Source: Mobula hypostoma
Lineage: Eukaryota
Direction of reading: 5' to 3'
DNA: 64,000 nt
Assembly: GCF_963921235.1 (NCBI RefSeq)
Contig: NC_086097.1
Location: 86,864,001-86,928,000, forward strand
The notes beneath the pieces are model-generated. The model was not told the DNA's origin, did not search any database, and was given only the letters and a program-made list of their open reading frames with translations. The position numbers and the translations under genes are program-made. Shown piece after piece: positions 3,464 through 54,227 of the stretch. Every line of letters starts with the position of its first letter. The first letter of the stretch is position 1.

Positions 3464-3648
3464 TAAGAACATAGAACATAGAATAGTACAGCACAGTACA
3501 GGCCCTTCGGCCCACAATGTTGTGCCGACTCTCAAACCCTGCCTCCCATATAACACCCCCCCCCCCCCGACCTTAAATTCCTCCATATACCTGTCTGGTC
3601 GTCTCTTAAATTTCACTAGTGTATCTGCCTCCACCACTGACTCAGGCA
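3464..3648 (-). mobile_element. CR1 LINE 3' fragment (same family as 18375-21007 and 54228-55780)
   Basis: (atagaac)n tail on the + strand. Minus strand encodes MPESVVEADTLVKFKRR..DRYMEEFKV, nearly identical to the C-terminus of the 18375-21007 copy. Confidence 0.88.
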
Positions 3649-4404
3649 TCCTGTTCTGTATTGGAGAGGTGGAAGAGGGTGACATGGTGGAGCTCATTCT
3701 TGTTTCTATCTCACTCTCATTCCAACATACAACAGCACACTCCATTGGTGCCCTGGTTGAGATAATCTGACTGAATGAAAAACATGAAATCAATATTGAG
3801 ATTGTTTTATTACCTATCTGTGCTGCAATGTGCATTCCTATGGATCCTGGACAATGGATGTATCAATTCTTTCTGCTTTAGCATATCTTTGAATTGTAAA
3901 TCATCTAGAAAGAAAATTGTGTTTATGAAGAACCTTTTACATAAAGTGTGACTAAGGATAGCTATAAATTTATTAAGAGAAGTCTCCTTGGAATGCTGCC
4001 ATCAAATCTTTAACAACGACATGAAATACCAAATAAGGTCATGGCTGTTTGGTAGACCATTTCTGAAAGAGTCTGCCCTGCATTAAAGTACCAATAATTA
4101 TTATATTCTAAAGCTTCTGGTCTATGACTTGAGCTCGTCCATGTTCAAAGAGAACACTGCTACTTCAAAGCCAGGCCAAATCAGAGTGCACACTATGTCA
4201 AACAATAAATTATAAGCATGAGGGCAAAGCTACAGCTGCGGTCCTTTGAATAAACAGGACTGGCATTATATTACATAGATGAGAAGTTATCAGAAGCAAT
4301 TTCACTTTATTGCTACATGAGTTGATCTCATGAAAAGCTTATCTTGGGAAAGGAAATATTTGCCAAATTCTCTAATTGTTTATGGACAGCTTGAGAAATA
4401 GTTT

Positions 4405-4624
4405 CATACAAAAATGCTGGAAGAATTCAGCAGGCCAGGCAGCATCTATGGAAAAGAGTAGGCAGTTGATGTTTCAGGCTGAGACCCTTCATCAGGACTG
4501 ATGGAGGGTCTCAGCCCGAAACCTCAACTGTACTCTTTTCCATAGATGCGGCCTGATCTGCTGAGTTCCTCCAGCATTTTGTGTGTGTAACTTGGATTTC
4601 CAGCATTGCAGATTTTCTCATCTT
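4405..4624. repeat. Penelope-derived inverted (palindromic) pLTR repeat with two degenerate hammerhead motifs
   Basis: Arms ~4407-4495 and ~4498-4590 are reverse complements. A CTGATG..GGGTCTC.GCC.GAAA motif occurs on each strand. Same repeat as the pLTR at 50722-50860. Confidence 0.75.
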
Positions 4625-4932: not shown

Positions 4933-5241
<309 letters not shown>

Positions 5242-5799
5242 TAGTATCAAATTGCATTGAACTGTTTCACCTTATGCAAGTTATAGTGGCTGCAGTAAAC
5301 CCATTTTTGGAGTAGTTTTATGGATTTTTAAATACAGTATGATGGAACACAGATTTTATATTTTCAGTGCAAGAAAAGCTTTATAAAATTGTTCTTTTCA
5401 CTTTTTCTGGTGGTGTATTAATAGGCCCACCTTTAGGTTTCATAACACTTTAGTCAGCATTTTATCTTCAATTGCCTCTTACAGGTGAAATAAATTTGAA
5501 GGTAATGGAGGCTTATCTAACTCGGTTGATTTAGCATGGTAAATTTCCCTGGGAGAATACACAGATTAACGGCACCCAATCAAACACCACTTGCATGGTG
5601 TTAAGTGTACTCTGCTTTTCTTTAGTGGTAAACAAGCTCTGTTTGGAATGGGAGAAACAGGAAGATGGGAAAAATCTAAATCACAAACACACAGTAGTGA
5701 TACAAAACACCTTCTGTGACAGAATTAACTGGCCACTTGCCATGGTGATTAGAAAGTTTGTTTGAGGTTTTGATTAGTCCTTCATAAAATAGCTGTAAT

Positions 5800-6230
5800 G
5801 AAGAGGGTAAAGTTGGAGATCTAGCCTCAAGAAAGGGAACACAGTTGCAGTTCTGTAACTGATAGTAAGTTAGAGATGTTTGGCTCTGGTACTCTATGGA
5901 GTTTAGAAGAATGAGAGGGATCTCATTGAAACCAATTGAATATTGAAATGCAGTCGTTGAGAGAATGTTTCCAATAGTAGAGGAGTCTAGGATCAGAGAG
6001 CACAACCACAGTATGCAAGGGCATCCCTTTAGAACAGAGGAGGAATTTATTTAGCCAGAGTATGGTAAATCTGTGGAACTCAGCTGTGAAGACCCAGTCA
6101 GTAGGTATGTTTCAAGCGGGCGTGCATATGTTCTTGATTAGTAACCCTTACGAAAGGTTACAGGGAGAAGGCAGGTGAATGGGGTTGAGAGGGATAATAA
6201 ATCAGCCATGATTGAGTTATGGTCTAGTTT
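5800..6230 (+). mobile_element. Old degenerate CR1 3' fragment
   Basis: Typical CR1 ORF2 end (ctctatggagtttagaagaatgagagggatctcattgaaacc...). Boundaries approximate. Confidence 0.6.
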
Positions 6231-6500
6231 ATACAGCACTAACTAAATAAGAGAACATTGCAGATGTGTGCAGTCCTTTCATTTTAAGATCTCTGATGAA
6301 AACCAGTCAGAAGCAAGGAACAATCTACTGTATCTACTTTGTCTTCTGAGCAACCTTATCCCTTCTATCCATGACAGAAAATTGCTGTACTCTTTGTGTA
6401 AATTTTTAATAATTTGACATGATCAGGGTTTTTGTGGCTAATGGAATAAATTCTACTATAATATGTTGGTTACTTCCTACAAAGTGAAACCCAATAGTAT

Positions 6501-7541
6501 GATGAACTCAACGCCTTCTATGCACGCTTTGAAAGGGAGAACACAACTACAGCTGTGAAGATCCCTGCTGCAGCTAATGACCCTGTGATCTCTGTCTCAG
6601 AAGCTGATGTTAGACTGTCTTTAAACAGAGTGAACCCTCGTAAGGCAGAAGGTCCCGTTGGAATACCTGGTAAGGCTCTGAAAACCTGTGCCAACCAACT
6701 AGCAGGAGTATTCAAGGACATTTTCAACCTTTCACTGCTATGGGCAGAAGTTCCCACTTGCTTCAAAAAGGCAACATTTATACTAATGCCAAAGAAGAAT
6801 AATGTGGACTGCCTTAATGACTATCGCCCGGTAGCACTCACATCGACAGTGATGAAATGCTTTGAGAGGTTGGTTATGACTAGACCGAACTCCTGCCTCA
6901 GCAAGGACCTGGACCCATTGCAATTTGCCTATCGTCACGATATGTCAACAGCAGATGCAATCTCCGTGGCTCTTCACATGGCTTTAGACCACCTAGGTAA
7001 CACAAACACCTATGTCAGGATGCTGTTCATCGACTATAGCTCGGCATTTAATACCATCATTGCCACAATCATAATTGAGAAGTTGCAGAACCTGGGCCTC
7101 TGTACCTCCCTCTGTAATTGGATCCTCGACTTCCTAACCAGGAGACCACAGTCTGTGCAGATTGGTGGTAACATGCCCTCTCTGCTGACGATCAACACTG
7201 GCGCACCTCAGGGGTGCGTGCTTAGCTCACTGCTCTACTCTCTGTATACATATGACTGTGTGGCTAGGCGTAGCTCAAATACCATCTACAAATTTGCTGA
7301 CAATACAACCACTGTTAGTAGAATCTCAGGTGGTGACGAGAGGGCGTATAGGAGTGAGATATGCCAGCTAGTGGAATGGTGCCACAGTAACAACCTGGCA
7401 CTCAACGTCAGGAAAACGAAAGAGCTGATTGTGGACTTCAGGAAGGGTAAGATGAAGGAACACGTACCAATCCTCAGAGGGATCAAAAGTGGAGAGAGTG
7501 AGCAGCTTCAAGTTCCTGGGTGTCAAGATCTCTGAAGATCT
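6501..7541 (+). mobile_element. Rex1/Babar-like LINE, 5'-truncated; part upstream of the L1 insertion
   Basis: RT ORF 6555-7535: [50 protein letters not shown] (degenerate FADD). Frameshift near 7480. Confidence 0.88.
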
Positions 7542-7697
7542 GGAGACTTCCGGTAGCGCTCATGGAGTGAAGTCGCGTTCTTGACTCGCTCCATTACCTC
7601 TGAGTTTTTTCTCTCTATGGTCAGCTATACTTTAATTAACTATTAAGGCATCAATTTTTACAATACTTTGAATTAAACTGAATTCTCTGACAATTGG

Positions 7698-8597
7698 ATG
7701 ATACTGAGATCGGCTATGTCTAAGAACGGGAAAGACGGCAAGGATGGTAAACCTCCGGTTAAACCGAAAGCTACGGATCTCCCTCCGACTGAATCACCGG
7801 TGACTTTGAAAGCGATATCGGAGTTAATTCAGAGGGAAATTTCAACCTCTGTTAGGGAGATGATTCGTACAGAAATTATGGGCTTTGTTAAAGACCTGAT
7901 TCATACGGAAATCTCAACTAAGTTCCAGAAAATTGCCGATTTAATTGATAAGATGCAAACATGTATTGCGGAACATCAGTCGGCTATATCTGATCTTCAA
8001 AAATCCGCGCAACAAAGTGAGCTTAAGATGGGGAAAGTCGAAGAAACAATTAATGTAATGAAGAAGAAACTTGACTTTTTGACTTTTAAAAACTCTGACT
8101 TGGAATCTAGAATGCGACGGCAGAATTTACGAATGATTGGCGTCAGGGAAGCCGTGGAAGCTAACAACCCTATGAAATATTTCTCCCAACTTTTAAAAGA
8201 TGCATTCCCTACTGTATTTCCTGACCAACCACCGTTACTGGATCGTGTTCACAGAATCCCATCATACTCGTCTAGGTCAGATAGACCGAGGCATGTTATC
8301 TTACGTTTTCATTACTTTCAAGACAAGGAGAGACTGTTTCGATTCGCTCGATCTAAAGGTTTCATTGATTTTTCGGATCTTAAGTTCCGATTCGTGGAAG
8401 ATTTCAGTAAACCAATCTGGGACCAACGGGTCCGTTACAGATCCGTGATGTCGGAATTCTATAAGATGGATTTAAGACCAGCGCTGCTGTACCCTGCACG
8501 TCTAAGGATTCGCATGTTAGATGGAGCCCTTCGTTTTTTTGATTCTCCATCGGATGCCCAGAGTTATCTGGATCAACTTTCATCTTCAACATCTTAA
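7698..8597 (+). CDS. L1 ORF1p (coiled coil, RRM, CTD), 299 aa; alternative ATG at 7716
   Basis: Heptad-like region followed by L1 ORF1 motifs RRQNLRMIGV, DRVHRI, RPRHVILRF and LLYPARLRI. Confidence 0.92.
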   Translation: MILRSAMSKNGKDGKDGKPPVKPKATDLPPTESPVTLKAISELIQREISTSVREMIRTEIMGFVKDLIHTEISTKFQKIADLIDKMQTCIAEHQSAISDLQKSAQQSELKMGKVEETINVMKKKLDFLTFKNSDLESRMRRQNLRMIGVREAVEANNPMKYFSQLLKDAFPTVFPDQPPLLDRVHRIPSYSSRSDRPRHVILRFHYFQDKERLFRFARSKGFIDFSDLKFRFVEDFSKPIWDQRVRYRSVMSEFYKMDLRPALLYPARLRIRMLDGALRFFDSPSDAQSYLDQLSSSTS

Positions 8598-9320
8598 TTG
8601 CCTTTTTTTTTAATTTTCTCCGTTGATCGGAGGCTGTGAATTGGTTGGTTTTAACTTTTCTGTGCCCTATTTGGGCAGAAAAGTTTACTTTCGATTTCTT
8701 AATATGGCTGCTAAACTTTCTTTTTAACTGCGTCATTTCTTTCTTTTCCCAGGGGATTCTGAGTGGTTACTTCCCTTTTGTCATCTTACGTATTTCCTGT
8801 GCGGCCTTAAATTTTGTAGTTTTTTTTACATTTTATTCTGTTTTGCTTTTTATAATCATTTTATGTTAATAATCCTATTTTTTTTTGTTGCTGTGTCTAT
8901 TCATGAGTTTGAGGTTTATTGTGGTTTTTTTTTAATATATACTTTCCGGCTTTTGTTCTGTTCTGTGTGTATTTTAATTGAGCTAACTTTTTTTTACTTA
9001 TTTTTTTACTGTTTTACAATTAGCTGACCCTTTTCATATTTATACCTTTTTTTTAGGGAGCGTATACCGGAAGTCATGGGGGTAGTTTTAGCGCTTGCTT
9101 CTTTCTGGCGGGTCTGCTTTAGATTTCGCCTTGGGGTCTTGGGCTGGGGGGTGGTGGGAGGGGCTTCACGTTTTAGTTTGTTTCTCTTTGGGCTATATAC
9201 ATTATTGAAGTATTGGTTGCGTCCTTTTCCCCGGTATCTTTTGTATGTTCTGTTTCCTCTCCGGGTTTGTGGGTCGCGCCTATTGTCAATCCTCCTTGTT
9301 ATGGGTTGACTTTAGGATTT

Positions 9321-12300
9321 ATGGAGTCTATTATTAATTTTGTCTCCTGGAATACTAATGGTCTTAATCATCCTATTAAAAGGAAAAAAGTTTTTAAAGT
9401 GTTCCGGAGACTTAAAGCACAAATTTTATTTTTACAAGAGACCCATGTACGGAGGGGGGACAGACTACGTTTTTTCAAATTCTGGAAGGGACAACAATTT
9501 CATTCGAACTCCAATGCTAAGATTCGAGGCGTCTCTATTTTTATAGACTCCTCAGTTACTTTTATACAACAGGATATTATCTCTGATCCGAATGGTAGAT
9601 TTTTACTGGTTAGTGGTTTACTATTTAATAAAAAAGTAGTTTTGGTTAATGTTTATGCTCCTAATATGGATTGTCCGGAATTTTATAAATCATTGTTTGA
9701 TCAGTTTCCGAATTTGAACGAGTTTTCATTGATTTGGGGCGGAGATCTTAATACCTGTTTATCTCCAGCTTTGGACCGTTCGGCTCCTTTACGGACTTTA
9801 CCTAATAAATCTGCAAATTTGATTAATTTTTTCCTTTCTGATTCTGGGTCGACGGACATTTGGCGTTTTCTGCATCCTCAGGAAAAAGATTTTTCCTTCT
9901 TTTCACATGTTCATCATTCCTATTCAAGAATTGATTATTTTTTCATTGATTCTCGTCTCATTCCTTCAGTGATTAAATGTGATTATGATTCTATAACCAT
10001 TTCGGATCATGCTCCACTTAAGCTTTCTATTAAAATTATGGCCAATATACCAAACAATAGACAATGGCGTTTTAATTCGCTGTTGCTTCAGGACTCGGAC
10101 TTTGTTAATTTTATGAATGAACAGATTGAGCTTTTTTTTACAATTAACCATACAGAAGATATTTCGGTTAACACTCTTTGGGACACTTTTAAAGCCTATA
10201 TTCGGGGTCAGATTATTTCGTATTCCGTTGCTTTGAGGAAGAAACAGAAGCAGGAGGAGATGGCAATTGTGGACAAGATTAAAGAAATTGATAAGAAATA
10301 TGTTATGGCTCCTTCTGAGGAGCTATACAAACAAAGAACTGAACTTCAAATGGAACACAGTTTACTACTCTCGTCCTCGATTGTAAACCAATTAAAGAAA
10401 ACAAGAAGTGATTTTTATGTTCACAGTGATAAAATTGGCAAGCTGCTGGCTAATCAATTGAAATCTAATTATGTTAAATCTCAAATCAATCAGATTTATA
10501 ACCAAAATGATCGATTGATATTGGATCATGTGGGGATTAATCAAACCTTTTGTGATTTTTATTCTTCTTTATATCAATCAGAGTCTCCTCGAGATTCTAA
10601 ATATATGAATGATTTTTTAGATAAGTTAGACTTCCCTCAGATTTCACAGGATATGTCTTCTTTATTAGATACTTCCATTACAATGGATGAGATTAAGAAT
10701 GTTATTTTTTCTATGAATCTGGGGAAAGCTCCTGGCCCTGATGGGTTTACCGTTGAATTTTATAAATGTTTTGCTTCTTTATTGATTCCTTGGCTCTATA
10801 AGGTTTTTGAGGCTTCTTTGAAACTTGGTAAACTTCCGGAATCTTTTAATAGAGCATCAATTTCTTTAATACTAAAGAAGGATAAAGACCCTGCTCAATG
10901 TGCATCTTATAGACCAATATCTTTATTAAATGTTGATTCTAAAGTTTTTTCTAAGTTATTAGCAAATAGACTAGAAAAAGTACTTCCTTCTATTATTTCG
11001 GAAGACCAAACGGGTTTTATTAAAGGTCGTTACTCTTTTTATAATATTCGTACATTGTTAAATATCGTTTATACTCCCTCACAAAATGTTCCTGAGTGTG
11101 TTATTTCTTTAGATGCCGAGAAAGCTTTTGATAGAGTAGAATGGCCTTATTTATTTAAGGTGCTTGAAATGTTTAATTTTAGCTTGAAATTTATATCCTG
11201 GATTAAACTGTTATATCACTCCCCTGTAGCCTCGGTTCGTACTAACTCCTTAAACTCACCTTTTTTTCCTCTCTTTCGTGGTACTCGACAAGGCTGTCCT
11301 CTTAGTCCCCTATTATTTGATATTGCATTAGAACCTCTTGCAATTGCTATTCGAGAATCTTCAAATATTACTGGGATAACTCGGGGATTAAAGTCCCATA
11401 AATTATCACTCTATGCTGATGATTTACTTTTATATATTTCTAATCCTGAGAGATCCATTCCTGCTGTTTTAGAGTTATTAGCACAATTTGGTCTTTTCTC
11501 AGGTTATAAATTAAATCTTAGTAAGAGTGAACTTTTTCCGATTAATAAACATCTTCCCTTATATTATAAATTTCCATTTAAATTGATTAATAATTACTTT
11601 TCATATCTTGGGATTAAAATTACTTGTAAACATAAAGATTTATTTAAGACTAACTTTTTACCATTAATAGACCATATTACTCAACTTTCATCTAAATGGT
11701 TTCCCTTATATTTAACTTTGATTGGTCGTATTAATGCAGTTAAGATGTTTTTTTTGCCAAAATTTTTATATGTGTTTCAGGCATTACCAATTTTCGTTCC
11801 TAAATCTTTTTTTGATAAAGTTGACTCTAAAATTTCTTCATTTATCTGGCAGAATAAGAATCCGAGACTGGGTAAAATACATTTACAGAAAGCTAAGAGA
11901 GATGGAGGTTTAGCATTACCTAACTTTAGATTTTATTATTGGGCTATTAATATTCGACATATGAAATTTTGGTTACTTGACCGGGACATACTATCTATTC
12001 CTAAATGGGTAGCATTGGAATTACAATCTGTTCAGGGTTATACACTTGGTTCTATTTTAGGTTCCTCTCTTCCTTTTGATTCGAAACGCCTTAAGCAGGT
12101 CTCTAACCCGATAGTTAAATATGCTTTGCGCATTTGGTTTCAATTCAGAAAATTTTTTGATCTTAATCAATTCGGGTTAGCGATTCCTATTTTAGGCAAC
12201 ATATTTTTTCCTCCCTCTTTTACGGATCGCGCTTTTCAAACTTGGAAGACTAAGGGTATTTTACGGTTTTTGGATTTATTTTTAGATGGTTCCCTTATGT

Positions 12301-13097
12301 CTTTTGAACAATTATCTAATAAATATAACTTATCAAGAATACATTTTTTTAGATATTTACAAGTTAGAAATTTCCTAAGTACTATACTTTCTTCCTTTCC
12401 AATGCTTCCTCCTATATATATTTTAGATTCGATAATTAACCTTAATCCATGTCAGAAAGGTGCATCGGCTATGATTTATAATATTATTATGAAACTTAGG
12501 AAAGCTCCATTTGATAAGATTAGGGTAGATTGGGAACAGGAATTGGGGCTTACCATTTCTGTGGATGATTGGGGGCAGATTTTACAATTAGTTAATACTT
12601 CCTCTATTTGTGCTAAACATTCCCTAATTCAATTTAAAGTGGTTCATAGAGCACATATGTCCAAAGATAAGTTAGCGCGTTTTTACTCGCATATTAATCC
12701 TTTCTGTGATAGATGTTCGGGGCAGATAGCCTCTTTAACTCATATGTTTTGGTCTTGCCCTACTTTGGAAACTTTTTGGAGAGATATTTTCAATATTATT
12801 TCTAAGGTATTAAATATAGATATCTCTCCTCACCCTATTACTGCTATCTTTGGACTACCTAAAATTTCTAGTAATCTTTCCCCTTCAGCCCGTAGAATGA
12901 TTGCATTTCTTACTTTAATGGCGAAAAGATGTATTTTACAACATTGGAAAGAGCTTAATGCTCCAACTACCTTTTTTTGGTTTTCTCAGACGATTTTATG
13001 TTTGAATCTGGAGAAAATTAGAAGTAACCTTTATGATTCTTCATTTAAATTTGAACAGATTTGGGGACCTTTTATTCGATATTTTCATTTAATGTAA
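9321..13097 (+). CDS. L1 ORF2p (APE endonuclease, reverse transcriptase, CCHC), 1258 aa from ATG 9321
   Basis: APE motifs SWNTNGL, FLQETH, GGDLN, SRIDY, SDH. RT motifs KAPGPDG, YRPISLLN, DAEKAFD, GTRQGCPLSP, YADD, YLG. C-terminal CDRC-x8-HMFWSC. No stops. Confidence 0.96.
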   Translation: MESIINFVSWNTNGLNHPIKRKKVFKVFRRLKAQILFLQETHVRRGDRLRFFKFWKGQQFHSNSNAKIRGVSIFIDSSVTFIQQDIISDPNGRFLLVSGLLFNKKVVLVNVYAPNMDCPEFYKSLFDQFPNLNEFSLIWGGDLNTCLSPALDRSAPLRTLPNKSANLINFFLSDSGSTDIWRFLHPQEKDFSFFSHVHHSYSRIDYFFIDSRLIPSVIKCDYDSITISDHAPLKLSIKIMANIPNNRQWRFNSLLLQDSDFVNFMNEQIELFFTINHTEDISVNTLWDTFKAYIRGQIISYSVALRKKQKQEEMAIVDKIKEIDKKYVMAPSEELYKQRTELQMEHSLLLSSSIVNQLKKTRSDFYVHSDKIGKLLANQLKSNYVKSQINQIYNQNDRLILDHVGINQTFCDFYSSLYQSESPRDSKYMNDFLDKLDFPQISQDMSSLLDTSITMDEIKNVIFSMNLGKAPGPDGFTVEFYKCFASLLIPWLYKVFEASLKLGKLPESFNRASISLILKKDKDPAQCASYRPISLLNVDSKVFSKLLANRLEKVLPSIISEDQTGFIKGRYSFYNIRTLLNIVYTPSQNVPECVISLDAEKAFDRVEWPYLFKVLEMFNFSLKFISWIKLLYHSPVASVRTNSLNSPFFPLFRGTRQGCPLSPLLFDIALEPLAIAIRESSNITGITRGLKSHKLSLYADDLLLYISNPERSIPAVLELLAQFGLFSGYKLNLSKSELFPINKHLPLYYKFPFKLINNYFSYLGIKITCKHKDLFKTNFLPLIDHITQLSSKWFPLYLTLIGRINAVKMFFLPKFLYVFQALPIFVPKSFFDKVDSKISSFIWQNKNPRLGKIHLQKAKRDGGLALPNFRFYYWAINIRHMKFWLLDRDILSIPKWVALELQSVQGYTLGSILGSSLPFDSKRLKQVSNPIVKYALRIWFQFRKFFDLNQFGLAIPILGNIFFPPSFTDRAFQTWKTKGILRFLDLFLDGSLMSFEQLSNKYNLSRIHFFRYLQVRNFLSTILSSFPMLPPIYILDSIINLNPCQKGASAMIYNIIMKLRKAPFDKIRVDWEQELGLTISVDDWGQILQLVNTSSICAKHSLIQFKVVHRAHMSKDKLARFYSHINPFCDRCSGQIASLTHMFWSCPTLETFWRDIFNIISKVLNIDISPHPITAIFGLPKISSNLSPSARRMIAFLTLMAKRCILQHWKELNAPTTFFWFSQTILCLNLEKIRSNLYDSSFKFEQIWGPFIRYFHLM

Positions 13098-13455
13098 TAT
13101 TTACCCTTCTTGTTTTTTTTTCACTGTTTTAATGGAGGTCGGGATTGAGGACGTGATTTTAAGTTTAACTCTGTTTGGTTTCAAGTTAGCCCATTGCTTT
13201 GCTTTGCTTTTAGGTAGTTGCACGGTGGGTTTTTTTTTGGGGGGTTTTTTTTTCTTTTTTTTTTCCATTGATATATATAAAATCTAGTATACTATTATGT
13301 TATCTTGGTTTCTTATGCTTAAATTACATTGTTTGTAGTATTTTCTTTTTGGTATTGTTATCTTTTGGAATTTTATTGTACTTTAACATTGTATTAATGT
13401 TTATATGGCTTACCTTTTTTGTATACTTACTCAATAAAAAGATTTAAAAAGAAAG

Positions 13456-14126
13456 AAGATCTCTGAAGATCTAACCTGGTCCCAACATATTGATATAGTC
13501 ATAAAGAAGGCAAAACAACAGCTATACTTCATTAGGAGTTTGAAGTGATTTGACATGTCAACAAATACACTCAAAAAATTCTATGGTTGTACCATGGAGA
13601 GCATTCTGACAGGCTACATCACTGTCTGGTATGGAGGGGCTACTGCACAGGACCAAAAGAAGCTGCAGAAGGTTGTAAATCTAGTCAGCTCCATCTTGGG
13701 CACTAGCCTACAAAGTACCCAGGATATTTAGGGAGCAGGGTCTCAGAAAGGCAGCGTCCATTATTAAAGACCTCCAGCACCCACGGCATGCCCTTTTCTC
13801 ACTGTTACCATCAGGTAGGAGATACAGAAGACTGAAGACACACACTCAGCGATTCAGGAACAGCTTCTTCCCCTCTGCCTTCTGATTCCTAAATGGACTT
13901 TGAAGCTTTGGACACTACCTCACTTTTTTTGATATACAGTATTTCTGTTTTTGCACATTTTTAATAATCTATTCAATATGTGTAATTGATTTACTTGTTT
14001 ATTTATTATTATGTTTTATTTTATTTATTTTTTTCTCTCTCTGCTAGATTATGTATTGCATTGAACTGCTGCTGCTAAGTTAACAAATTTCACGTCACAT
14101 GCCAGTGATAATAATTCTGATTCTGA
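13456..14126 (+). mobile_element. Same Rex1/Babar-like LINE; part downstream of the L1 insertion
   Basis: Frame resumes FLGVKISED|LTWSQHIDIVIKKAKQQLYFIRSLK, then becomes degenerate. Ends in an (attctg)n tail. Confidence 0.88.
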
Positions 14127-14889
14127 GAAGCTGGATCTTGGTCGAAGTAGTTGTCTTTTCACTCTGCATTTGGATAAGCTTTATTGGAACTGAGAGGACA
14201 AGGAGCTGACAGTAGGGATTGGCAGCAGAGTATTAAAGTTATGGAAATAATTTGTAAATTAAAGCAATAAAAATGTAATCGTACACAATGAGAGTAGACA
14301 GTGAGTATATAAGTATCTTATACAACAAGTTGAAGAATTCTGTATTTACTGAGATAAGAGGGAGCAATCAAGAATCTATCTTTATGATGTAACCATTTTC
14401 TTTGGATGTTTGCATTTTTGTTCACAAGAGAACATAATGTAAAATAGAGCATAAGAAATGAGGAAGTGAATAATCAGCAAAATTATGTCAAGAGGTAGTT
14501 ACACGGTAATTTTACTTCAGCCTTTGTTGGTTATAGTTCTTTTCATTTGGGAGTATTCAGGAGCTGAACTGTAAAATCTCGGCAACGTATTGTTAATGTG
14601 CAGTTTCGACGAGCAGCAGGATATATGTCAAGTCAGATGGACATTGCTGAGATATTTTCAGCTATACCACACCTGGGAGAGCTCAAACCACATGTATTGA
14701 AAGGTAGAACCCTTCTCAATCTGTACTTGCCATTGCTGCTGATGAGTACGCTTGGCAGGAACCTTGGTGCTGATTAGGGCAGAGCAAAACAAGGATTGTG
14801 GGAGAAAGGAAAAATAGTTTAATAAGATTAAGAGCAACAAGATGGCTAAGTATTTAGTTCTAAAAGAGATTACACGTTAATTCTTTATT

Positions 14890-15233
14890 ATGGTAAAAGT
14901 CCATTAATCCAGCACTTTTAGGAATTAGGTGGTGCTAAACTAGCAGATTTTCTGCATGAGTGAATGATGCTCCTATTACTATCCAAATGTTTTATTTCAT
15001 ATGTTATACAACTGTAATTCCAGTGAATATAAGAGGAGTGTTAAATATGTTAGTATTCCAGCTGCAGACCTACCTATATTCATGACCCCTGATGTTCCAG
15101 CATCAGCCCCGACTCCAGCTACACTCCCAGCCCAATCTAGCCATACTCTGGGCTCTCCACTCACATTCTGGATCAATGAGCAAGTTTATATGATTTCCAA
15201 ACTATTGGATGCTGGATTATCAAGGTTTTACTG
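14890..15233. mobile_element. Possible Tigger/pogo-like MITE
   Basis: Imperfect terminal inverted repeat gtaaaagtccattaatccagca / tgctggattatcaaggttttac. Confidence 0.4.
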
Positions 15234-15291: not shown

Positions 15292-15624
<333 letters not shown>

Positions 15625-18374: not shown

Positions 18375-21007
18375 GTGGTCAGGGATACTATTACAGCTAC
18401 AGAAAGGGTGAGTAATGTAGCAGGATCCTCTTTTGAGTCAGTATGGGTGGAAGTCAGGAACAGGATGGTAGCAGTTACTCTATTGGGAGTATTCTATAGG
18501 CCCCCTGGTAGCAGCAGAGATACCGAGGAGCAGATTGGAAGGCAGATTTTGGAAAGGTGCAAAAATAACAGGGTTGTTATCATGGGTGACTTTAACTTCC
18601 CTAATGTTGATTGGCACCTAATTAGTTCCAATGGTTTAGATGGGGCAGAGTTTGTTAAGTGTGTCCAGGACGGACTCCTGTCACAGTATGTTGACAAGGC
18701 CGACTAGGGGAAATGCCATACTAGATCTAGTATTAGGTAACGAACCGGGTCAGGTCAAAGATCTCTCAGTGGGTGAGCATCTGGGGGACAGCGATCACCG
18801 CTCCCTGGCCTTTAGCATTATCATGGAAAAGGATAGAATCAGAGAGGACAGGAAAATTTTTAATTGGGGAAGGGCAAATTATGAGGCTATAAAGCTAGAA
18901 CTTGTGGGTGTGAATTGGGATGATGTTTTTGCAGGGAAATGTACTATGGACATGTGGTCGATGTTTAGAGATCTCTTGCGGGATGTTAGGGATAAATTTG
19001 TCCTGGTGAGGAAGATAAAGAATGGTAGGGTGAAGGAACCATGGGTGACAAGTGAGGTGGAAAATCTAGTCAGGTGGAAGAAGGCAGCATACATGAGGTT
19101 TAGGAAGCAAGCATCAGATGGGTCTATTGAGGAATATAGGGTAGCAGGAAAGGAGCTTAAGAAGGGGCTGAGAAGAGCAAGAAGGGGGCATGAGAAAGCC
19201 TTGCCGAGTAGGGTACAGGAAAACCCCAAGGCATTCTTCAATTATGTGAAGAACAAAAGGATGACAGGAGTAAAGGTAGGACCAATTAGAGATAAAGGTG
19301 GGAAGATGTACCTGGAGGCCGTGGAAGTGAGCGAGGTCCTCAATGAATACTTCTCTTCAGTATTCACCAATGAGAGGGAACTTGATGGCGGTGAGGACAA
19401 TATGAGTGAGATTGATGTTCTGGAGCATGTTGATATTAAGGGAGAAGAGGTGTTGGAATTAGGATGGATAAGTCCCCGGGGCCGGATGGAATATTCCCCA
19501 GGCTGCTCCACGAGTCAAGGGAAGAGATTGCTGAGCCTCTGGCTAAGATCTTTATGTCTTCATTGTCTACGGGAATGGTACCGGAGGATTGGAGGGAGGC
19601 GAATGTTGTCCCCTTGTTCAAAAAAGGTAGTAAGGATAGTCCGGCTAATTATAGACCAGTGAACCTTATGTCTGTGGTGGGAAAGCTGTTGGAAAAGATT
19701 CTTAGAGTAGGATCTATGGGCATTTAGAGAATCATGGTCTGATCAGGGACAGTCAGCATGGCTTTGTGAAGGGCAGATCGTGTCTAACAAGCCTGATAGA
19801 GTTGTTTGAGGAGGTGATCAGGCATGTAGATGAGGGTAGTGCAGTGGATGTGATCTACATGGATTTTAGTAAGGCATTTGACAAGGTTCCACATGGTAGG
19901 CTTATTCAGAATATCAGAAGGCATGGGATCCAGGGAAGTTTGGCCAGGTGGAGTCAGAACTGGCTTGCCTGCAGAAAGCAGAGGGTCGTGGTGGAGGGAC
20001 TACATTTGGATTGGAGAGTTGTGACTAGTGGTGTCCCACAAGGATCGGTTCTGGGACCTCTACTTTTTGTGATTTTATTATTGAACTGGATGTGGGGGTA
20101 GAAGGGTGGCTTGGCAAGTTTACAGACAACGTAAAGGTTGGTGGTGTTGTGGATAGTGTAGAGGATTGTCGAAGATTGCAGGAAGACATTGATAGGATAC
20201 AGAAGTGGGCTGAAAAGTGACAGATGGAGTTGAACCTGGACAAGTGTGAGGTGGTACACTTTGGAAGGACAAACTCCAAGAGTACAAAGTAAATGGCCAG
20301 GATACTTGGTAGTGTGGAGGAGCAGAGGGATCTGGGGGTACATGTCCACAGATCCCTGAAAGTTGCCTCACAGGTAGATAGGGTAGTTAAGAAAGCTTAT
20401 GGGGTGTTAGCTTTCATAAGTCGAGGGATAGAGGTTGAGTGGCAAGGTAGTGATGCAGCTCTATAAAATTCTGGTTAGGCCACACTTGGAATACTGTGTC
20501 CAGCTCTGGTCACCTCACTATAGGAAAGATGTGGAGGCATTGGAAAAGGTACAGAGGAGATTTACCAGGATGCTGCCTGGTTTAGAGAGTATGCATTATG
20601 ATCAGAGATTAAGGGAGCTAGGGTTTACTCTTTGGAGAGAAGGAGGATGAGAGGGGACATGATAGAGGTGTACAAGATAATAAGAGGAATAGATAGAGTG
20701 GACAGCCAGAACCTCTTCCCCAGGGCACTTCTGCTCAATACAAAAGGACATGGCTTTAAGGTAAGGGGTGGGAAGTTCAAGGGGGATATTAGAGGAAGGT
20801 TTTTTACTCAGAGAGTGGTTGGAGCGTGGAATGCACTGCCTGAGTCAATGGTGGAGGCAGATACACTAGTGAAATTTAAGAGACTACTAGACAGGTATAT
20901 GGAGGAATTTAAGGTTGGGGGTTATATGGGAGGCAGGGTTTGAGGGTCGGCACAACTTGGTGGGCCAAAGGGCCGGTACTGTGCTGTACTATTCTATGTT
21001 CTATATG
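18375..21007 (+). mobile_element. CR1 LINE, 5'-truncated, frameshifted ORF2 (partial APE plus RT)
   Basis: GVFYRPP, MGDFNFP, LDLVL, SDH, KSPGPDG, NYRPV, DFSKAFDKVPH, SGVPQGSVLGP, VRPHLEYC across several frames. (ttctatg)n tail at ~20990-21007. Confidence 0.93.
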
Positions 21008-24432: not shown

Positions 24433-24781
24433 CAGTGGCCCCCACCTCTGGGCCGCGGACCGATACATTGCTGCAAAGAATGCAGTGATGCAGCGGTAGT
24501 TGGAATGCACCCAGCACATCTTTAAGAAAGAAGCCGAAATAAACAAGCTAATTAAATAGGTGCCGCCCGGCACGTAAATGTCGGCCCAGATCAGAGGTGA
24601 TTGTCGATTGCGTCGCCTCTGATCTGGGCTAACATTTACGTGCTGGGCGGCACCTAATTAATTAGCTTGTTTATTTCGGCTTTTTTCTTAAAGGTGTGCT
24701 GGGTGTGTTCGAACTACCGCTGCATCACTGCATTCTTCGTGGCAATGTATCAGTCCGTGGCCCAGAGGTTGGGGACCACTG
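24433..24781. mobile_element. 349-bp fully palindromic hAT MITE
   Basis: CAGTGG...CCACTG ends. Perfect 8-bp TSD CTTTATGC (24425-24432, 24782-24789). ~165-bp arms are reverse-complementary around a centre near 24605. Confidence 0.93.
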
Positions 24782-26334
24782 CTTTATGCTGTCCCTCATC
24801 CAGTCTGCTGATGAGTTTCTACAAATCGTTTGAATAACAAGAAAATGCAGTGACTGCAGCCTTGTCATTCATAATTGGCCTGGCATCATCATGTTTCCAG
24901 ACTGAATCCTAGGAAGGGCTCTAAACTAAATATAAAATTATCTTATTGCCACCTCTGTTGATCCTTCTTGCACTCACTACCCAAGATTAGTTTAATGATT
25001 GCTCTTGATTTGAAAGAAGGCATTGTATATTCAAGGTTAACTGGGCAACACATGATGGCCTCAATAAGTGTAACGTGTGATGTGGACAACGCAGGTTTAT
25101 ATCAGAGTGCTATTGACAGCAGATTTCTTGTTTAACATCAGCAGTACTTCCAGCAATGTAAATGACTATTTTGGAATACTAGGCAATCATTTCATGCAGA
25201 ATTTCAATATACATGTATATTTAAACAAAAGCCAATCTCCTTTACTGTTTCAGTGCGCTCTGATAAATGATTTGCTTAGTTGTATTATTACCTTAGACTT
25301 TTGAACAGAATGTGAACTTACTTTGATGTGATCAGCAGCTGTGGAATGTGGTAATGAAGTTTTAATATTCAATCAGAGCAGCCTTTGTGCATGCTTATCT
25401 GCAAACCACAGTATCTGAGTGCCTGGCTGTTCTCATATATCAGTCAAAGTATCGAGCGAACTGCTCTTTACAAGGTCAAAGGAATTAGTCCATGTCACTT
25501 CTATTTGTTGAGAATACCTTCAGAGTAGAAATAAATGATGGCGTTTTGTTTGACAGATTATACAGTCAAAATATGTATAAACAATTAGTTCAATGCCCAT
25601 TTAAAATAGTACAGAATAGCAGTATTTTGGCTCATCTAATGTACAACATTTCAAAATGTATAACAAGATCATTTTCCACAAAAGATATTATTTTGTGGAA
25701 AACATATGTATATTACAGAGGATGTACAAAAAATTATTGAGCATCCTTTTTAAAGAACGAAGATGAAGAGATAGAGAAAAATTTGGAGAGGGCATTATAG
25801 GGGTAGAACAAGAGCTAAATATATCGCTCTCAAAGGTGGAGCAATTAAAATGAGCAACGTCTGAATTGAAGGGGTTTGCATGTCTGAAGGAGAATGAAGT
25901 TGTCAGAACTAAGGGCATGAAGAAGTTTTAAAACATGGGTGAGAATTTTAAAATCAAGGCTTTACTTATCCAGGAATGAATATGGGGTGGTGAGCAGAGG
26001 GCGATAGAAGAGCAATGGAAATTCAGATCTAGCAAAAGATCTTTTCCATACAATTTATAGAATAGAATGAGGAGTTAGAGCCATAAGAGCAATGAAATAG
26101 CTATGTCCAGAACCAACAAAGATGTGAGTAAGCAATGTATGAAGAAAGGTAGGGCTGAATTGGGCAATTTAATAGAGGTAGAATTAAGCATTTTATCACT
26201 GTGTTATCCAAAATGCACTGTAGGATCCATTTTAACATCAGTAATTGTACAGTGCAGTTTGGCCTCCTATAGTAGCCAGATGGATGGGAATGAAAAATTA
26301 TCTTTTATAGTTTCATTACTTAACTGAAGAAAAT

Positions 26335-27920
26335 TCAGATCTGCCCTGCGCAGAGTCAATGCGAGGAAAGCAGCTGGCCCAGATGGAGTCACTGGGAGGA
26401 TTCTTAAGGACTGCGCAGATCAACTAGCGGGAGTATTTACTACCATCTTCAACCTCTCGCTACTACAGTCTGTAGTCCCCACCTGCCCTAAGTCAGCCAC
26501 AATAATACCCATACCAAAGAAACGTGCAGTGAACTGCCTTAACGACTATCGCCCAGTTACTCTAACTCCTATCATCATGAAATGTTTTGAGAGACTCATA
26601 CTGTCTTATATTAAGTCTGCCATAACTGCTGACCTTGATAAATACCAGTTTGTGTATCGTGCAAACAGATCGACAGAGGATGCAGTCATCACAGCTCTCC
26701 ACACAGCCCTTACAAACCTGGAGCAGGATAACACCTATGTAAGAATGCTGTTTGTGGACTACAGCTCAGCTTTTAATACAGTCATCCCCCACAAACTGGT
26801 GCAAAGATTGAGCAACCTGGGCCTTGGCAGTTCACTGTGCTCATGGATACTGGATTTTCTGAGTAACAGACCCCAAAGTGTCAGGATGGGAGAACAGACA
26901 TCATCTACTCTCATCCTGAACACCGGTACACCACAGGGGTGTGTTCTCAGCCCCATCCTCTATTCTCTTTTCACCCATGACTGCTCTACCATTCACTCCA
27001 CCAACACCATTGTCAAATTTGCTGACGATACCACCCTAGTAGGTATCATATCAGACTATGATGAGACAGCCTATAGGGAGGAGGTAAAGCATTTGACAGA
27101 ATGGTGTTGTCACAATAACCTGGACTTGAACATCACAAAATCCAAGAAGCTGATAGTAGACTTCAGGAAATCAAAGCGCGTCGAGCACTCTGCTCTGCAC
27201 ATATACGGGAAAGAGGTGGAGAGAGTAGAGAGTTTCAAGTTCCTCGGCGTCCACATCTCGGCTGACCTCACCTGGACTGCCCATATCTCTTATCAGGTGG
27301 GGAAGGCCCAACAGAGGCTCTACTTCCTAAGGAAGCTAAAGCACGCTCTCCTCCCTCATCACCTGCTGATCAACTTCCATCGGACAACTATAGAGAGCCT
27401 CCTGACGTAATGCTGTGCAGTGTGGTTTGCCAGCTGCACAGAACAGAACAGGAGGGACTTGCAGTGGGTGGTGAGGGTAGCAGAGCGGGTTATTGGCACA
27501 ACATTACCCTCCCTCAGAGACATTTATACTGGCAGACTTCAAAAAAAGGCTACTTGTATTTCAAAGGATCCCACTCATCCTGGACATCACCTGTTTTCCC
27601 CTCTACCCTCTGGGAACATTAAGGAAGAATACAAAGGGACTCCGTAACAGCTTCTACCCACAAGCACTGAAATGTATAACTCCCCCTTCCCTTCTCCTGC
27701 CCCCCTCCTAAGACAGCGGCACCAAAATGCATCGCACTTCCAGGAATGGCAGGTGTGCAATAGTCCTACCCCCCCCCCACCCCCCCGTCTATATATTATT
27801 AATTTTGGACTGCACTCCTGAGGTTTTAGAGTTAATTTTACGTATATATTTTTTGTCATGCTGCAAAACGTTGAGCTGCTAGACTGTGTTTCATTGCACC
27901 ATAACAATGACAATAAAGAT
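26335..27920 (+). mobile_element. Second Rex1/Babar-like LINE family, 5'-truncated, nearly intact RT
   Basis: Open frame from [17 protein letters not shown] through KFADD to a TAA at 27408-27410, continuing in frame CCAVWFASC...HPGHHLFSPLPSG. AATAAA near 27912, then a pyrimidine-rich tail. Confidence 0.9.
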
Positions 27921-28069: not shown

Positions 28070-28255
28070 AAACACAAGAAATACTGTAGATGCTGGCAAT
28101 CCAGAGTGATACACACGATATGCTGGAGAAATTTAGGAGGTCAGGCAGTATCTATGGAGAAGGATGAACAGTGGATGTCTCAAGGCGAGACTCTTCATCA
28201 GACTGGAAAGAAAGGAGGAAGAGGCCAGAGTACAAAGATGGGGGGAGGGAGGGGG
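28070..28255 (-). repeat. Degenerate Penelope pLTR fragment
   Basis: Similar to 50722-50880. Minus strand reads ctgatgaagagtctcgccttgagacatc. Confidence 0.55.
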
Positions 28256-39245: not shown

Positions 39246-39325
39246 CAAGGGTTCCCAACCTGGGGTCCACGGAACCCTTGCTTAATGGTATTGGTCCATG
39301 TCATAAAAAAGGTTGGGAGCCCCTG
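39246..39325. mobile_element. 80-bp hAT MITE (family of 1364-1433)
   Basis: TIR caagggttcccaacct / aggttgggagcccctg. TSD ttttacag/ttctacag. Confidence 0.82.
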
Positions 39326-39383
39326 TTCTACAGTATGAATAAGCCAATGAATTGACAACTGGATTCTATTTCTGCTCCTAGAA

Positions 39384-39505
39384 CAGGGGTTCCCAAACCT
39401 TTTTATGCCATGGACCCCTACCATTAAATGAGGGATCCATGGTGTCAATTGATCTTTCATTTAATGGTAGTGGGTCCATAACATAAAAAAGGTTGGGAAC
39501 CCCTG
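39384..39505. mobile_element. 122-bp palindromic hAT MITE variant
   Basis: TIR caggggttccca / tgggaacccctg. Perfect TSD TCCTAGAA (39376-39383, 39506-39513). The two halves are reverse complements. Confidence 0.88.
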
Positions 39506-40555
39506 TCCTAGAATATCCTCCCCATTTCCTTAATATTACACTGATGTACCAGCATTGAAACTTTTCCAGAACAGGATTAGAAATCAATCTTGTGATTCCA
39601 AAATAAGTATTTCTATTGACCTGTTGAGTTGTGGGTTTCCAACCTCAGGTGGTAGATAAATGAGAGCAAATCTCCCTGAACTGTCTTATCAATGCTGCCA
39701 GCATTTAGACCTGATTATTTTAAAAACTCACTGCAATCTCTTTTGTTAGAAGTTTCATTCCTGTGATTTTTCAGATTTAGGGTTGTTTCTTATGATTTGT
39801 CCCTCTTTCTGTTAATTCAAAATCACTTGACGGATACCTGCCAACTTTGATAACTTAAGAACACGGGACATTGTATGGTGAAAATTGGCTGCTCTAGCAT
39901 GTGCAGGTTTTTCCACTGAGCTTCAATTTGTGTCACTATTATTTACATCTCCTCATTTCTGCAATCATACTGCAAGTACTTACTAGAAGAGAGTATACAA
40001 TAACTGAGCCACTGTAGAAGGAGATGATAGGTCAGGATTACAAAGGTTCCCTGGGATGTTGTTTTGTTGCACAATATAGGTCAGATTAATTCTGAAGCCT
40101 GTGCCTTGATCTAGGTCTAAGTGTTAATGCTTATGTAAGAAAAACTATTGAGCATTAAACATCTAGTAACGTTTTCATGATGAGAAAGAAAAGAAATGAT
40201 TTGATTTTCTGTTAAGTCTACGGCTAATTTCAAAGTGGGCGCAATAGGATAGTTGTCCATCATCATCATCATCGTTATATTATGTGGACGTTCATGGTCT
40301 ATGACCATGATTGTTCTTGGCAAATTTTTCTACAGAAGGGGTTTGCCATTGCTTTCTCCTAGGCAGTGTCTTTACAAGACGGCTGTGACCCCAGCCATTA
40401 TCAATACTCTTCAGAGATTGTCTGCCTGACGTCAGTGATAACCAGGACTTGTGATATACACCAGTTGTTCATATGACCATCTACCATCTGCTCCCTTGGC
40501 TTCACATGACCCAAAACCAGGTTGGGGGTGCGGGGGAGGCTAAGCAGGTGCTACA

Positions 40556-44213: not shown

Positions 44214-46190
44214 AATATAATAGGTAATAGACAATATAGATAATAGGTGCAGGATTAGGCCATTTGGCCGAGCCAGCACCGCCATTCACTGTGATCATGG
44301 CTGATCATCCACAATCGGTATCCAGTTCCTGCCTTATTCCCATAATCTTTGATTCCACTATCTTTAAGAGCTCTATCCATCTCTTTCTTGAAAGCATCCA
44401 GAGCCTTGGCCTCCACAGCCTTCTGGGGCAGAACATTCCATATATTCACCACTCTCTGGGTGAAAAAGTTTTTCTTCAACTCCGTTTTAAATGGCCTACC
44501 CCTTAACTGTGACCTCTGGTTCTGGACTCACCCATCAACGGGAACATGCTTTCTGCCTCCAGCGTGTCCAATCCCTTAATAATCTTATATGTTTCAATAA
44601 GATCCCCTCTCAGCCTTCTAAATTCCAGAGTATACAAGCGCAGAAGCTCCAATCTTTCGACATATGGTTGTCCCGCCATCCTGGGAATTAACCTTGTGAA
44701 CCTGCGCTGCACTTCCTCAATAGCAAGAATGTCCTTCCTCAAATTTGGAGACCAAATCTGCACACAGTACTCCAGGTGTGGTCTCACCAGGGCCCTGTAC
44801 AGCTGCAGAAGGACCTCTTTGCTCTTATACTCAATTCCCCTTGTTATGAAGGCCAGCATGCTATTAGCTTTTTTCACTGCCTGCTGTACTTGCATGCTTG
44901 CTTTCAGTGACTGATGTACAAGAACACCTAGATCTCATTGTACTTCCCCTTTTCCTAACTTGACTCCATTTAGCTAATAATCTGCCTTCCTGTCCTTACT
45001 ACCAAAGTGGATAACCTCACATTTATCCACATTAAACTGCATCTGCCATGCATCTGCCCACTCACCCAGCCTGTCCAAGTCACCCTGCATTCTCATAACA
45101 TCCTCCTCACATTTCACACTGCCACCCAGCTTTGTGTCACCGGCAAATTTGCTAATGTTACTTTTAATTCCCTCATCTAAATCATTAATATATATTGTAA
45201 ACAGCTGCGGTCCCAGCACTGAACCCTGCGGTACCCCGCTGGTCACCGCCTGCCTTCCATTAATCGCTACTCTTTGTTTTCTGTCAGCCAACCAATTTTC
45301 AATCCATGTCAGTACTCTGCCCCCAATACCATGTGCCCTAAGTTTGCCCACTAATCTCCTATGTGGGACTTTATCAAAGGCTTTCTGAAAGTCCAGGTAC
45401 ACTACATCCACTGGCTCTCCCTTGTCCATTTTCATAGTTACATCCTCAAAAAATTCCAGAAGATTAATCAAGCACGATTTCCTCTTCATAAATCCATACT
45501 GACTCAGACCGATCCTGTTACTGCTATCCAGATGTGTCGTAATTTCATCTTTTATATTTGACTCCAGCATCTTTCCCACCACTGACGTCAGGTTAACTGG
45601 TCTATAATTCCCTGTTTTCTCTCTTCCCTCCTTCTTGAAGGGAGGGACAACATTAGCCACCCTCCAATCCACAGGAACTGATCCTGAATCTATAGAACAT
45701 TGGAAAATGATTACCAATGCGTCCACGATTTCTAAAACCACCTCCTTAAGTACCCTGGGATGCAGACCATCAGGTCCCGGGGACTTACCAGCCTTCAGAC
45801 TCAACAGTCTATCCAACATCATTTCCTGCCTAATATAAATTTCCTTCAGTTCATCCATTACCCTAGGTCCTTTGGCCACTATTATATCTGGGAAATTGTT
45901 TGTATCTTCCCTAATGAAGACAGATCCAAAGTACCTGTTCAACTCGTCTGCCATTTCCTTGTTCACCATCATAAATTCACCCATTACTGTCTTCAAGGGC
46001 CCAATTTTGGTCTTAACTATTTTTTTCCTTTTCACATACCTAAAGAAGCTTTTACTATCCTCCTTTATATTCTTGGCTAGTTTACCTTCGTACCTCATTT
46101 TTTCTCCGCGTATTGCCTTTTTAGATACCTTCTGTTGCTCTTTAAAAGTTTCCCAGTCCTCCGGCTTCCCACTCGTCTTTGCTATGTTAT
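44214..46190 (-). mobile_element. CR1 LINE (second family), 5'-truncated, RT largely open
   Basis: Minus ORFs 44974-46098 (KSPGPDG, NYRPV, DFQKAFDKVPH, SGVPQGSVLGP, KFAGDTKLGG) and 44503-44895. Confidence 0.92.
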
Positions 46191-53218: not shown

Positions 53219-54227
53219 CCAGTTTATAGGGCTAATATACTATGGCAAGGAGGGGAAGCCCTATCCCCCTCAAAGATTATCTTGATGTCACCATTATGAG
53301 CTAAGGTTCTCTCATAATCAGGAAGTCTGTAATCCTACTACAAAAGGTCATGGATGGTAAGTGCTTTGTTCACAGATAAGGTCAATGTCTGTTGGTCAAT
53401 GATATAAATAATGCATTTCACTGTATGTTTTCCTGTTTCAATGAATATATGACAAATAAAGCTATTTATCTTTAATCTTTTCTTTGAGTAAGTGGGATGA
53501 GGAATGAGATCATAAAACCATAAGACATTGGAGCAGAATTGAGCTATTCAGCCAATCGAGTCTGCTCCACCGTTCTATCATTGCTGATTCATTATCCCTC
53601 TCAGCCGCATTCTCCTACTTTCTCCCCGTAACCTTTGACACTGTGATTAATCAAGAGCCTGTCAACCTCCGTCTTAAATATACCCAGTGACTTGGCCTGC
53701 ACAGCTGTCTGTGGCAATAAATTCCACAGATTCTCTGGCTAAAGAAATTTTTACTCATCTCTGTTCTAAATGGACGTCCTTCAATTCTGAGGCTGCACCT
53801 TCTGGTCTATACTCACCAACTACAGGAAATATCCTCTCCACATCCACTCCATCTAAGCCTTTCAGTATTCAATAGATGTAAATGAGATGCCCCTCATTCT
53901 TCTAAACTACAGCAAATACAGGCCCAGTACCATCGAGTGCTCCTAGTATATTAATCCTTTGATTCCAGGGATCATTCTCTTGAACCTTCTCTGGATGCTC
54001 TCCTAGGCCAGCACATCTTTAGATAAGGGACCCAAACCTGCTCATGATACTCCAAATGTGGTCTGACCAATGCCTTATAAAGCCTTAGCTTTATATCCTT
54101 GATTTTGTATTCTATTCCTCTCAAAATTAATGCTAACATTGCACTTGCCTTCTTTACCACTGACTCAGCCTGCAAGTTAACCTTTAGGTAATCCTGCACA
54201 AGGACTCCCACTTCACTTTGTACCTTT

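Follow-up and report, generated by a model that had tools for sequence, protein, structure and literature searches.

The 64,000-nucleotide stretch of the Mobula hypostoma genome considered here (the window: NC_086097.1, positions 86,864,001 to 86,928,000, forward strand) includes part of the gene PCNX1, and one intron of that gene holds a full-length LINE-1 (L1) retrotransposon of 5,914 bp, located on the + strand at positions 7542–13455 between the two copies of a target-site duplication. The L1 is itself nested in an older, broken long interspersed element (LINE), the coding sequence of which it splits at the target duplication. The exons on either side of the intron match consecutive stretches of pecanex-1, and a cartilaginous-fish host is supported because the top match of the downstream exon is from Callorhinchus milii (90%), the named tetrapod and teleost matches to the same exon being likewise pecanex-1, at ~77–82%. 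The L1 is sense-oriented relative to PCNX1, and the intron measures 10.1 kb rather than 4.2 kb.

Table 1. Features of the L1-bearing PCNX1 intron and its bounding exons (window positions).
Feature	Position	Strand	Remarks
PCNX1 exon upstream of the L1-bearing intron	4952–5205	+	AG/GT ends; spliced RNA contig
Host LINE before the insertion: 5′-truncated reverse transcriptase of an older LINE	6482–7524	+	Start approximate; frameshift near 7475
5′ copy of target-site duplication, original host-LINE sequence	7525–7541	+	Direct-repeat comparison, 100%; host protein breaks off after FKFLGVKISED
L1 5′ untranslated region	7542–7715	+	156 nt before first ATG, 174 nt before likely start; begins GGAGACTTCCGGT
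ORF1, type II (coiled coil, RRM, C-terminal domain)	7698–8597	+	299 aa counted from ATG 7698; start probably ATG 7716, for 293 aa
Inter-ORF region	8598–9320	+	723 nt, 48% T, six ATGs ahead of ORF2
ORF2, 1,258 aa: APE endonuclease, reverse transcriptase, C-terminal Cys/His motif	9321–13097	+	
3′ untranslated region, 51% T	13098–13455	+	AATAAA 13433–13438; interrupted A-rich end ~13446–13455
3′ copy of target-site duplication	13456–13472	+	Exact repeat; host protein resumes ISEDLTW
Host LINE after the insertion	13473–14130	+	Stops and frameshift; end approximate
PCNX1 exon downstream of the L1-bearing intron	15337–15567	+	AG/GT ends; spliced RNA contig

A preliminary description of this DNA had proposed a chondrichthyan L1 in a PCNX1 intron, with two uninterrupted open reading frames (ORFs) of 299 and 1,258 aa, the endonuclease, reverse transcriptase (RT) and CCHC motifs, a perfect 17-bp target-site duplication, and every other LINE in the window truncated or frameshifted, and on all these structural points the present analysis agrees with it, save for the start of ORF1. 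Both L1 frames are uninterrupted, and the longest others among the 18 ORFs of at least 120 aa listed for the window encode 374, 340, 277 and 249 aa, consistent with the remaining LINEs being broken. The duplication is exact at 17/17 positions, the match extends no further at either copy, the adjoining outer bases being unlike, and a comparable 17-nt match joining both ends of the element has a chance probability of ~2 × 10−6. The element ends in an A-rich tail of ~10 nt, interrupted by G and lacking a long poly(A), downstream of the AATAAA. The 5′ untranslated region (UTR) presumably acts as an internal promoter; its predicted folding is nothing beyond that of shuffled sequence (z = −0.96), the last 290 nt of the inter-ORF spacer are no more structured than shuffles (z = 0.43), and a search of the 64-kb window against Rfam returned no matches. 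A second copy of the ACTTCCGG motif seen at the 5′ end lies in reverse orientation within the spacer at 9067–9074, and is either a possible antisense or internal promoter site or a chance occurrence. The L1 also brings 18 AATAAA/ATTAAA signals into the PCNX1 intron, and its T-rich sense strand presents splice-acceptor-like AG sites at 8752, 9969, 12895 and 12989.

ORF1 matched the Pfam family Transposase_22 (E = 8 × 10−10) and the solved human LINE-1 ORF1p (PDB 2ykp; E = 2 × 10−15). Since the column of its seventh residue is Met in 95% of 135 relatives (retained by length out of 150 matches), translation probably begins at Met7 (ATG 7716), giving 293 aa; the open frame of 299 codons thus stands as first described and its proposed start does not. 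The protein deviates at 5/30 conserved columns, mostly by conservative changes. Val245, presumably the counterpart of human Arg262, was considered as a lesion and rejected, because 63 of the 135 relatives have Ala in that column, 23 have Lys and 19 have Arg.

ORF2 aligned with human ORF2p over residues 4–1231 (PDB 8sxt; E = 3 × 10−185), and residue-level reading located the endonuclease motifs (N11, E40, D142/N144, D205 and H230), the RT motifs (DAEKAFD at 598, QGCPLSP at 657 and YADD at 698), and, by direct inspection, the C-terminal motif (CDRC at 1129, HMFWSC at 1141), for which the Pfam zf-RVT score of 26.1 bits fell slightly below the cut-off of 27.5. Deviations were recorded at five of the 207 columns that are ≥95% invariant (among 120 relatives, median 2 and 90th percentile 5), and three of the five are shared by the nearest relative, P0001. 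Judged from the letters of the two frames, no clear inactivating lesion is visible and the catalytic motifs appear intact; the copy may be able to jump.

Nesting in the older LINE is a feature that the preliminary description overlooked. With all three homologous proteins used as queries, alignment ran to FKFLGVKISED immediately before the L1 and resumed with ISEDLTW immediately after it. The host LINE is 5′-truncated and carries stops and two frameshifts, and the observed/expected CpG ratios of its two halves are 0.40 and 0.16 against 0.80 for the L1. It belongs to a family combining an RT with PF09004 that is common in teleosts; none of its matches was named Rex1, and the label Rex1/Babar is one that we presume to apply. 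Its RT shares 60–70% identity with many teleost proteins, a much closer relation than the 45–47% between this L1 and those of teleosts. No target duplication was found around the host LINE, the longest repeat being 8 nt. A related LINE of the same type at window positions 26300–27500 shares 60% amino acid identity with it, and there the stretch from FKFLG to DLTW is unbroken. A published survey reports that, of the species it sampled, rays have the most abundant Rex1, and that many Rex1 transfers took place between rays and teleosts (PMC13343379).

Judged by its anatomy, the L1 is a fish-type, zebrafish-like vertebrate LINE-1. All six of its lengths fall within the ranges given for zebrafish L1 (PMC5381506): total 5,914 bp (zebrafish 5,380–7,293), 5′ UTR 156–174 (113–267), ORF1 882–900 (780–1,059), inter-ORF region 723 (311–730), ORF2 3,777 (3,516–3,837) and 3′ UTR 358 (167–2,157). 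Five of six GC values also lie within range, the exception being that of ORF2 (32.4%), slightly below the fish range of 33.3–38.6%. Further common features are the GACTTCCGG 5′ end, the T-rich spacer and 3′ UTR, and an AATAAA near the end; the initial GGAGACTTCCGGT resembles the 5′ ends of both zebrafish and lizard L1s in the same survey. The element differs from zebrafish L1 in that T (38.6%) exceeds A (29.0%) in its ORF2, in its very short A-rich tail, and in its cartilaginous-fish host, a group not sampled in that survey. With human L1 it shares the two-ORF plan, a type II ORF1, an ORF2 consisting of endonuclease, RT and C-terminal segment, the catalytic residues and the target duplication, but differs by a 5′ UTR that is short, AT-rich and devoid of a CpG island, the absence of a long poly(A), a spacer of 723 nt rather than ~40 nt, and a sense strand that is T-rich rather than A-rich.

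Among the database matches, no protein was more than 66% identical to ORF2, and the exact ORF1 and ORF2 sequences were not in the protein collection searched. The closest relatives came from an ENA sister element, the ORF2 of which (P0391, P0001) is 65–66% identical with equal length and domains, while its ORF1 (P0241) is 35% identical; P0391 and P0241 each lie on 6,071-bp contigs, and probably represent a single sister element, complete in length and resident in a different host. In a quick RT tree comprising 40 rows (the query plus 39 of 120 relatives) the element came out as sister to P0001 within an 11-row group that has no named member, with all six named ray-finned-fish proteins outside that group. 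As the named teleost ORF2 proteins are just 45–47% identical and fall outside its branch in this quick tree, recent horizontal transfer from teleosts was considered and found unsupported. A scan of metagenome contigs for further ORF2 relatives yielded 94 pattern matches and no confirmed locus. LINE1 is reported in all vertebrate lineages sampled (PMC4350176), and old L2 and CR1 are said to predominate in the single chondrichthyan that a 2017 review covers (PMC5381603); our literature search, which had partial coverage and lay outside Repbase and Dfam, found no paper on the L1 families of cartilaginous fishes.

The size of the family was approached through contigs from public sequencing runs, 23 of which were listed and four (X1, X5, X9 and X13) compared in detail. 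Four DNA runs from one sample of organism A hold 82–84% of the words of positions 4950–14900, four runs presumed to be RNA hold 57–62%, and four other organisms 7–33%. Matches were accepted at 92% likeness, and depth accordingly includes every copy above that threshold, intact or not. In X1, an organism A DNA run, the unique flanks are identical to the window over 3,341/3,341 bases, and X1 may be the source sample of the window and hence not independent of it. Its depth in unique flanks is ~15, and the summed depth along the L1 climbs some six-fold from 5′ to 3′, from 128,000 to 785,000 (Spearman 0.96, 15 bins). This shows a high-copy family and, indirectly, one in which most copies are 5′-truncated, as is usual for L1. 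Expressed relative to unique DNA, the depth in organism A is 11–59 times that in organism B over the L1 and 1.2–1.8 times over the host LINE, part of which excess may reflect L1s of organism B that fall below the 92% threshold. Two long pieces listed from organism A RNA contigs agree with the copy at 444/445 bases, a divergence of 1/445 (95% interval 0.006–1.2%); in PMC5381506 a recently active L1 family is recognized by a cluster of full-length copies <2% apart, and the present one may qualify. At the same 92% likeness the 5′ half of the L1 (7542–9320) is much more depleted than ORF2 in organisms B and C, while introns of organism B differ by only 1.3%; turnover of the 5′ UTR, ORF1 and spacer may be rapid in the host lineage.

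By several measures the insertion is young in sequence terms, and it probably postdates the split between organisms A and B. The observed/expected CpG ratio of 0.80 in the L1 compares with 0.25 in the rest of the window. In X9, from organism B, the flanks differ at 47/3,607 bp (1.3%) and contigs enter the host LINE at either end; within the L1, position 8288 lacks cover, each of four listed pieces spans 96–117 aligned bases with 6–9 differences, and the letter other than that of the window is found alone at nine of the 11 listed L1 sites, at seven of which the organism A RNA contigs mostly carry the window's letter. Insertion after the split is indicated because an orthologous copy should have yielded long, near-identical contigs, as the flanks did. 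The two open frames themselves bound the copy's own divergence to ~0.4–0.8% (P = 0.05, under three assumed indel rates). Young in sequence need not mean recent in years, since the mutation rate of the epaulette shark is 7 × 10−10 per generation (interval 1.4–14.1 × 10−10; PMC10587355), at which a divergence of 0.2% would correspond to >1 million generations if the differences are private to the copy; if the parent copy already carried them, any younger age would be possible for the insertion. The earlier epithet 'very young' accordingly holds for the sequence, by CpG retention and the lack of a near-identical copy in the contigs of organism B, and need not carry over to time.

The reading that we favour, at a probability of about three in four, is that the element is an ordinary full-length fish-type L1 belonging to a subfamily that has many near-identical copies and that underwent its expansion in this species after the split from a close relative. 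The steps by which it would have arrived follow established L1 biology. A full-length RNA from another copy of the family would have been translated into the chaperone ORF1p and the endonuclease and RT ORF2p, both of which would then have bound the full-length transcript. ORF2p would have nicked the bottom strand at 5′-TCTT/GA, a relaxed form of the L1 site TTTT/AA, inside the dead host LINE of the PCNX1 intron, where the short A/G-rich tail of ~10 nt could have annealed to the TCTT end exposed by the nick. Reverse transcription would have proceeded to the 5′ end of the RNA, and a second nick 17 nt away would have created the 17-bp duplication. The nick site, the steps of target-primed reverse transcription and the order of events are all reconstructed by analogy. 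For the translation of ORF2, internal entry has been proposed from prediction programs (PMC5381506).

Several observations weigh against this account of an ordinary young copy in a large family. A longer A-rich tail would be looked for in a fresh insertion, if what we take to be the expectation from mammalian L1 applies. ORF2 deviates at 11 of 492 class-conserved columns against a median of five in its relatives; eight of the 11 are shared by the sister protein P0391, and the remaining S177, V328 and A935, which the nearest relative lacks, could be lesions. None of the joints listed came from a contig spanning either L1 junction. What the contig comparison displayed was the tool's own selection, comprising 40 difference rows (222 in total) and 15 joints (1,064 in total), and with ~84% of X9 read and rare variants dropped by contigs, the absence from organism B is probable rather than proven. 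Contig depth, through which family size was gauged throughout, is by the tool's own statement not copy number; as contigs overlap by 30 bases, a given base may enter the count as many as 31 times, and division by 31 would give rough copy floors of ~270–350 at the 5′ end, ~1,400–1,650 at the 3′ end, and ~50–110 at the two thinnest listed sites (8603 and 8288).

The preliminary description went further in proposing a source element, possibly polymorphic, and the best surviving alternative is that the window copy is itself a main active source of the family and segregates in the population. In its favour are the open frames with their low ceiling on divergence, the intact catalytic residues, the complete 5′ end, the retained CpG and the location within a transcribed gene; full-length L1s of stickleback and anole are, moreover, described as rare and seldom fixed (PMC5381506). 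The RNA evidence points the other way. None of the presumed RNA runs is labelled as RNA in its public record, and X5 is taken as spliced RNA because two long contigs (2,451 and 3,004 bases) match exons alone, stopping at their edges, the depth in introns being 4–7. Its L1 contigs have a depth of 2,077–2,345, which passive read-through or DNA could explain because the RNA:DNA depth ratio over the L1 (0.009–0.056, 15 bins) is no higher than over the dead host LINE (0.022–0.043, three bins). Of the 11 listed L1 sites, X5 carries a letter other than that of the window at two, 8288 (silent, in ORF1) and 10264 (ORF2 residue 315), and does so in all the depth counted (2618.9/2618.9 and 3113.6/3113.6); the dominant RNA at these sites is therefore not from the window copy, and in X1 the other letter at 8288 likewise makes up 98.6% of depth. 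With the family high-copy as well, the claim of a source element is not supported, and we regard it as unlikely; X5 is a single RNA run, possibly from another individual and with minor forms dropped, and it lowers the case for a source role rather than excluding it.

Joints resembling an empty site occur in X1, X5, X9 and X13, with 22–28 letters on the short side and the 17-mer present singly in an unbroken host LINE, and loose ends at 7541 and 13456 involve 61 and 35 contigs in X1 (agreement ~0.7). As proof of polymorphism these joints were ruled out, since host-LINE copies elsewhere in the genome could have produced them. The stretch was represented in a single DNA sample of organism A. The PCNX1 exon contigs on either side of the intron have depths of 51.7 and 61.7 in X5, from which no effect on PCNX1 can be concluded, contig depth being unable to rank parts of a gene and the sample possibly lacking the insertion.

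It is highly improbable that nesting reflects a preference of the family for a site in the host LINE, comparable to the fixed repeat targets of the Tx1 group. The element does share with Tx1 an ORF2 with endonuclease and RT, a target duplication and insertion inside another repeat, here a very abundant one, but Transposase_22, the hallmark of a type II ORF1, is the only Pfam match of its ORF1, whereas the RRM plus zinc-knuckle (zf-CCHC) form is the one that goes with Tx1 (PMC5203782). The insertion site also fits the relaxed L1 cut, and chance nesting is the simplest reading because L2/CR1/Rex elements cover 12.5–22% of five batoid genomes (bioRxiv 10.64898/2026.10.27.761883). Equally improbable is an assembly effect, whereby many copies collapsed or majority-polished into one sequence at this site would account for the intact frames, an idea which a high-copy, near-identical family and the lack of a junction-spanning contig among the listed joints would suit, but against which stand the exact duplication joining the two halves of the host reading frame, the retention at 8288 of a minority letter that majority polishing would erase, and the identity of the unique flanks in X1, with the proviso that X1 is possibly the source sample.

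Elsewhere in the window, a 149-aa ORF at 36164–36613 matches Pfam DDE_3 (E = 2 × 10−8) as a Tc1-like transposase fragment, and self-complementary elements resembling miniature inverted-repeat transposable elements lie at 24433–24781 (88%), 4400–4592 (86%) and 39267–39511 (74–83% inverted identity), the family of the second recurring near 28100, 33250 and 50780. Three long broken LINEs, which we take to be CR1, occupy 18400–21005, 44500–46100 and 54227–56400, the first and last, which are oppositely oriented, sharing 86% identity along 1.6 kb.

A single insertion carries little weight, since intact young copies are to be expected wherever L1 is active, and the element is an additional vertebrate L1 of known type; as a specimen, it is a clean full-length L1 from a group absent from the main comparative papers, in which sharks go unmentioned (PMC5381506, PMC5203782). 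The possible novelty lies in a species-specific build-up of 5′-bearing copies. We hold as a tentative idea, and clearly the less probable outcome, that a teleost-built L1 has been accumulating here in mammal-like fashion, with hundreds or more of near-identical 5′-bearing copies added since a split 1.3% deep and tolerated in sense inside expressed genes; in fish and reptiles full-length progenitors are described as 'very small' in number (PMC5381506). Such a burst, if real, would uncouple fish-type L1 anatomy from the rarity of full-length progenitors, and a true build-up of full-length copies would put to the test the view that tolerance of numerous full-length L1 progenitors is confined to mammals, while giving a group that mutates slowly a set of lineage-specific presence/absence markers.

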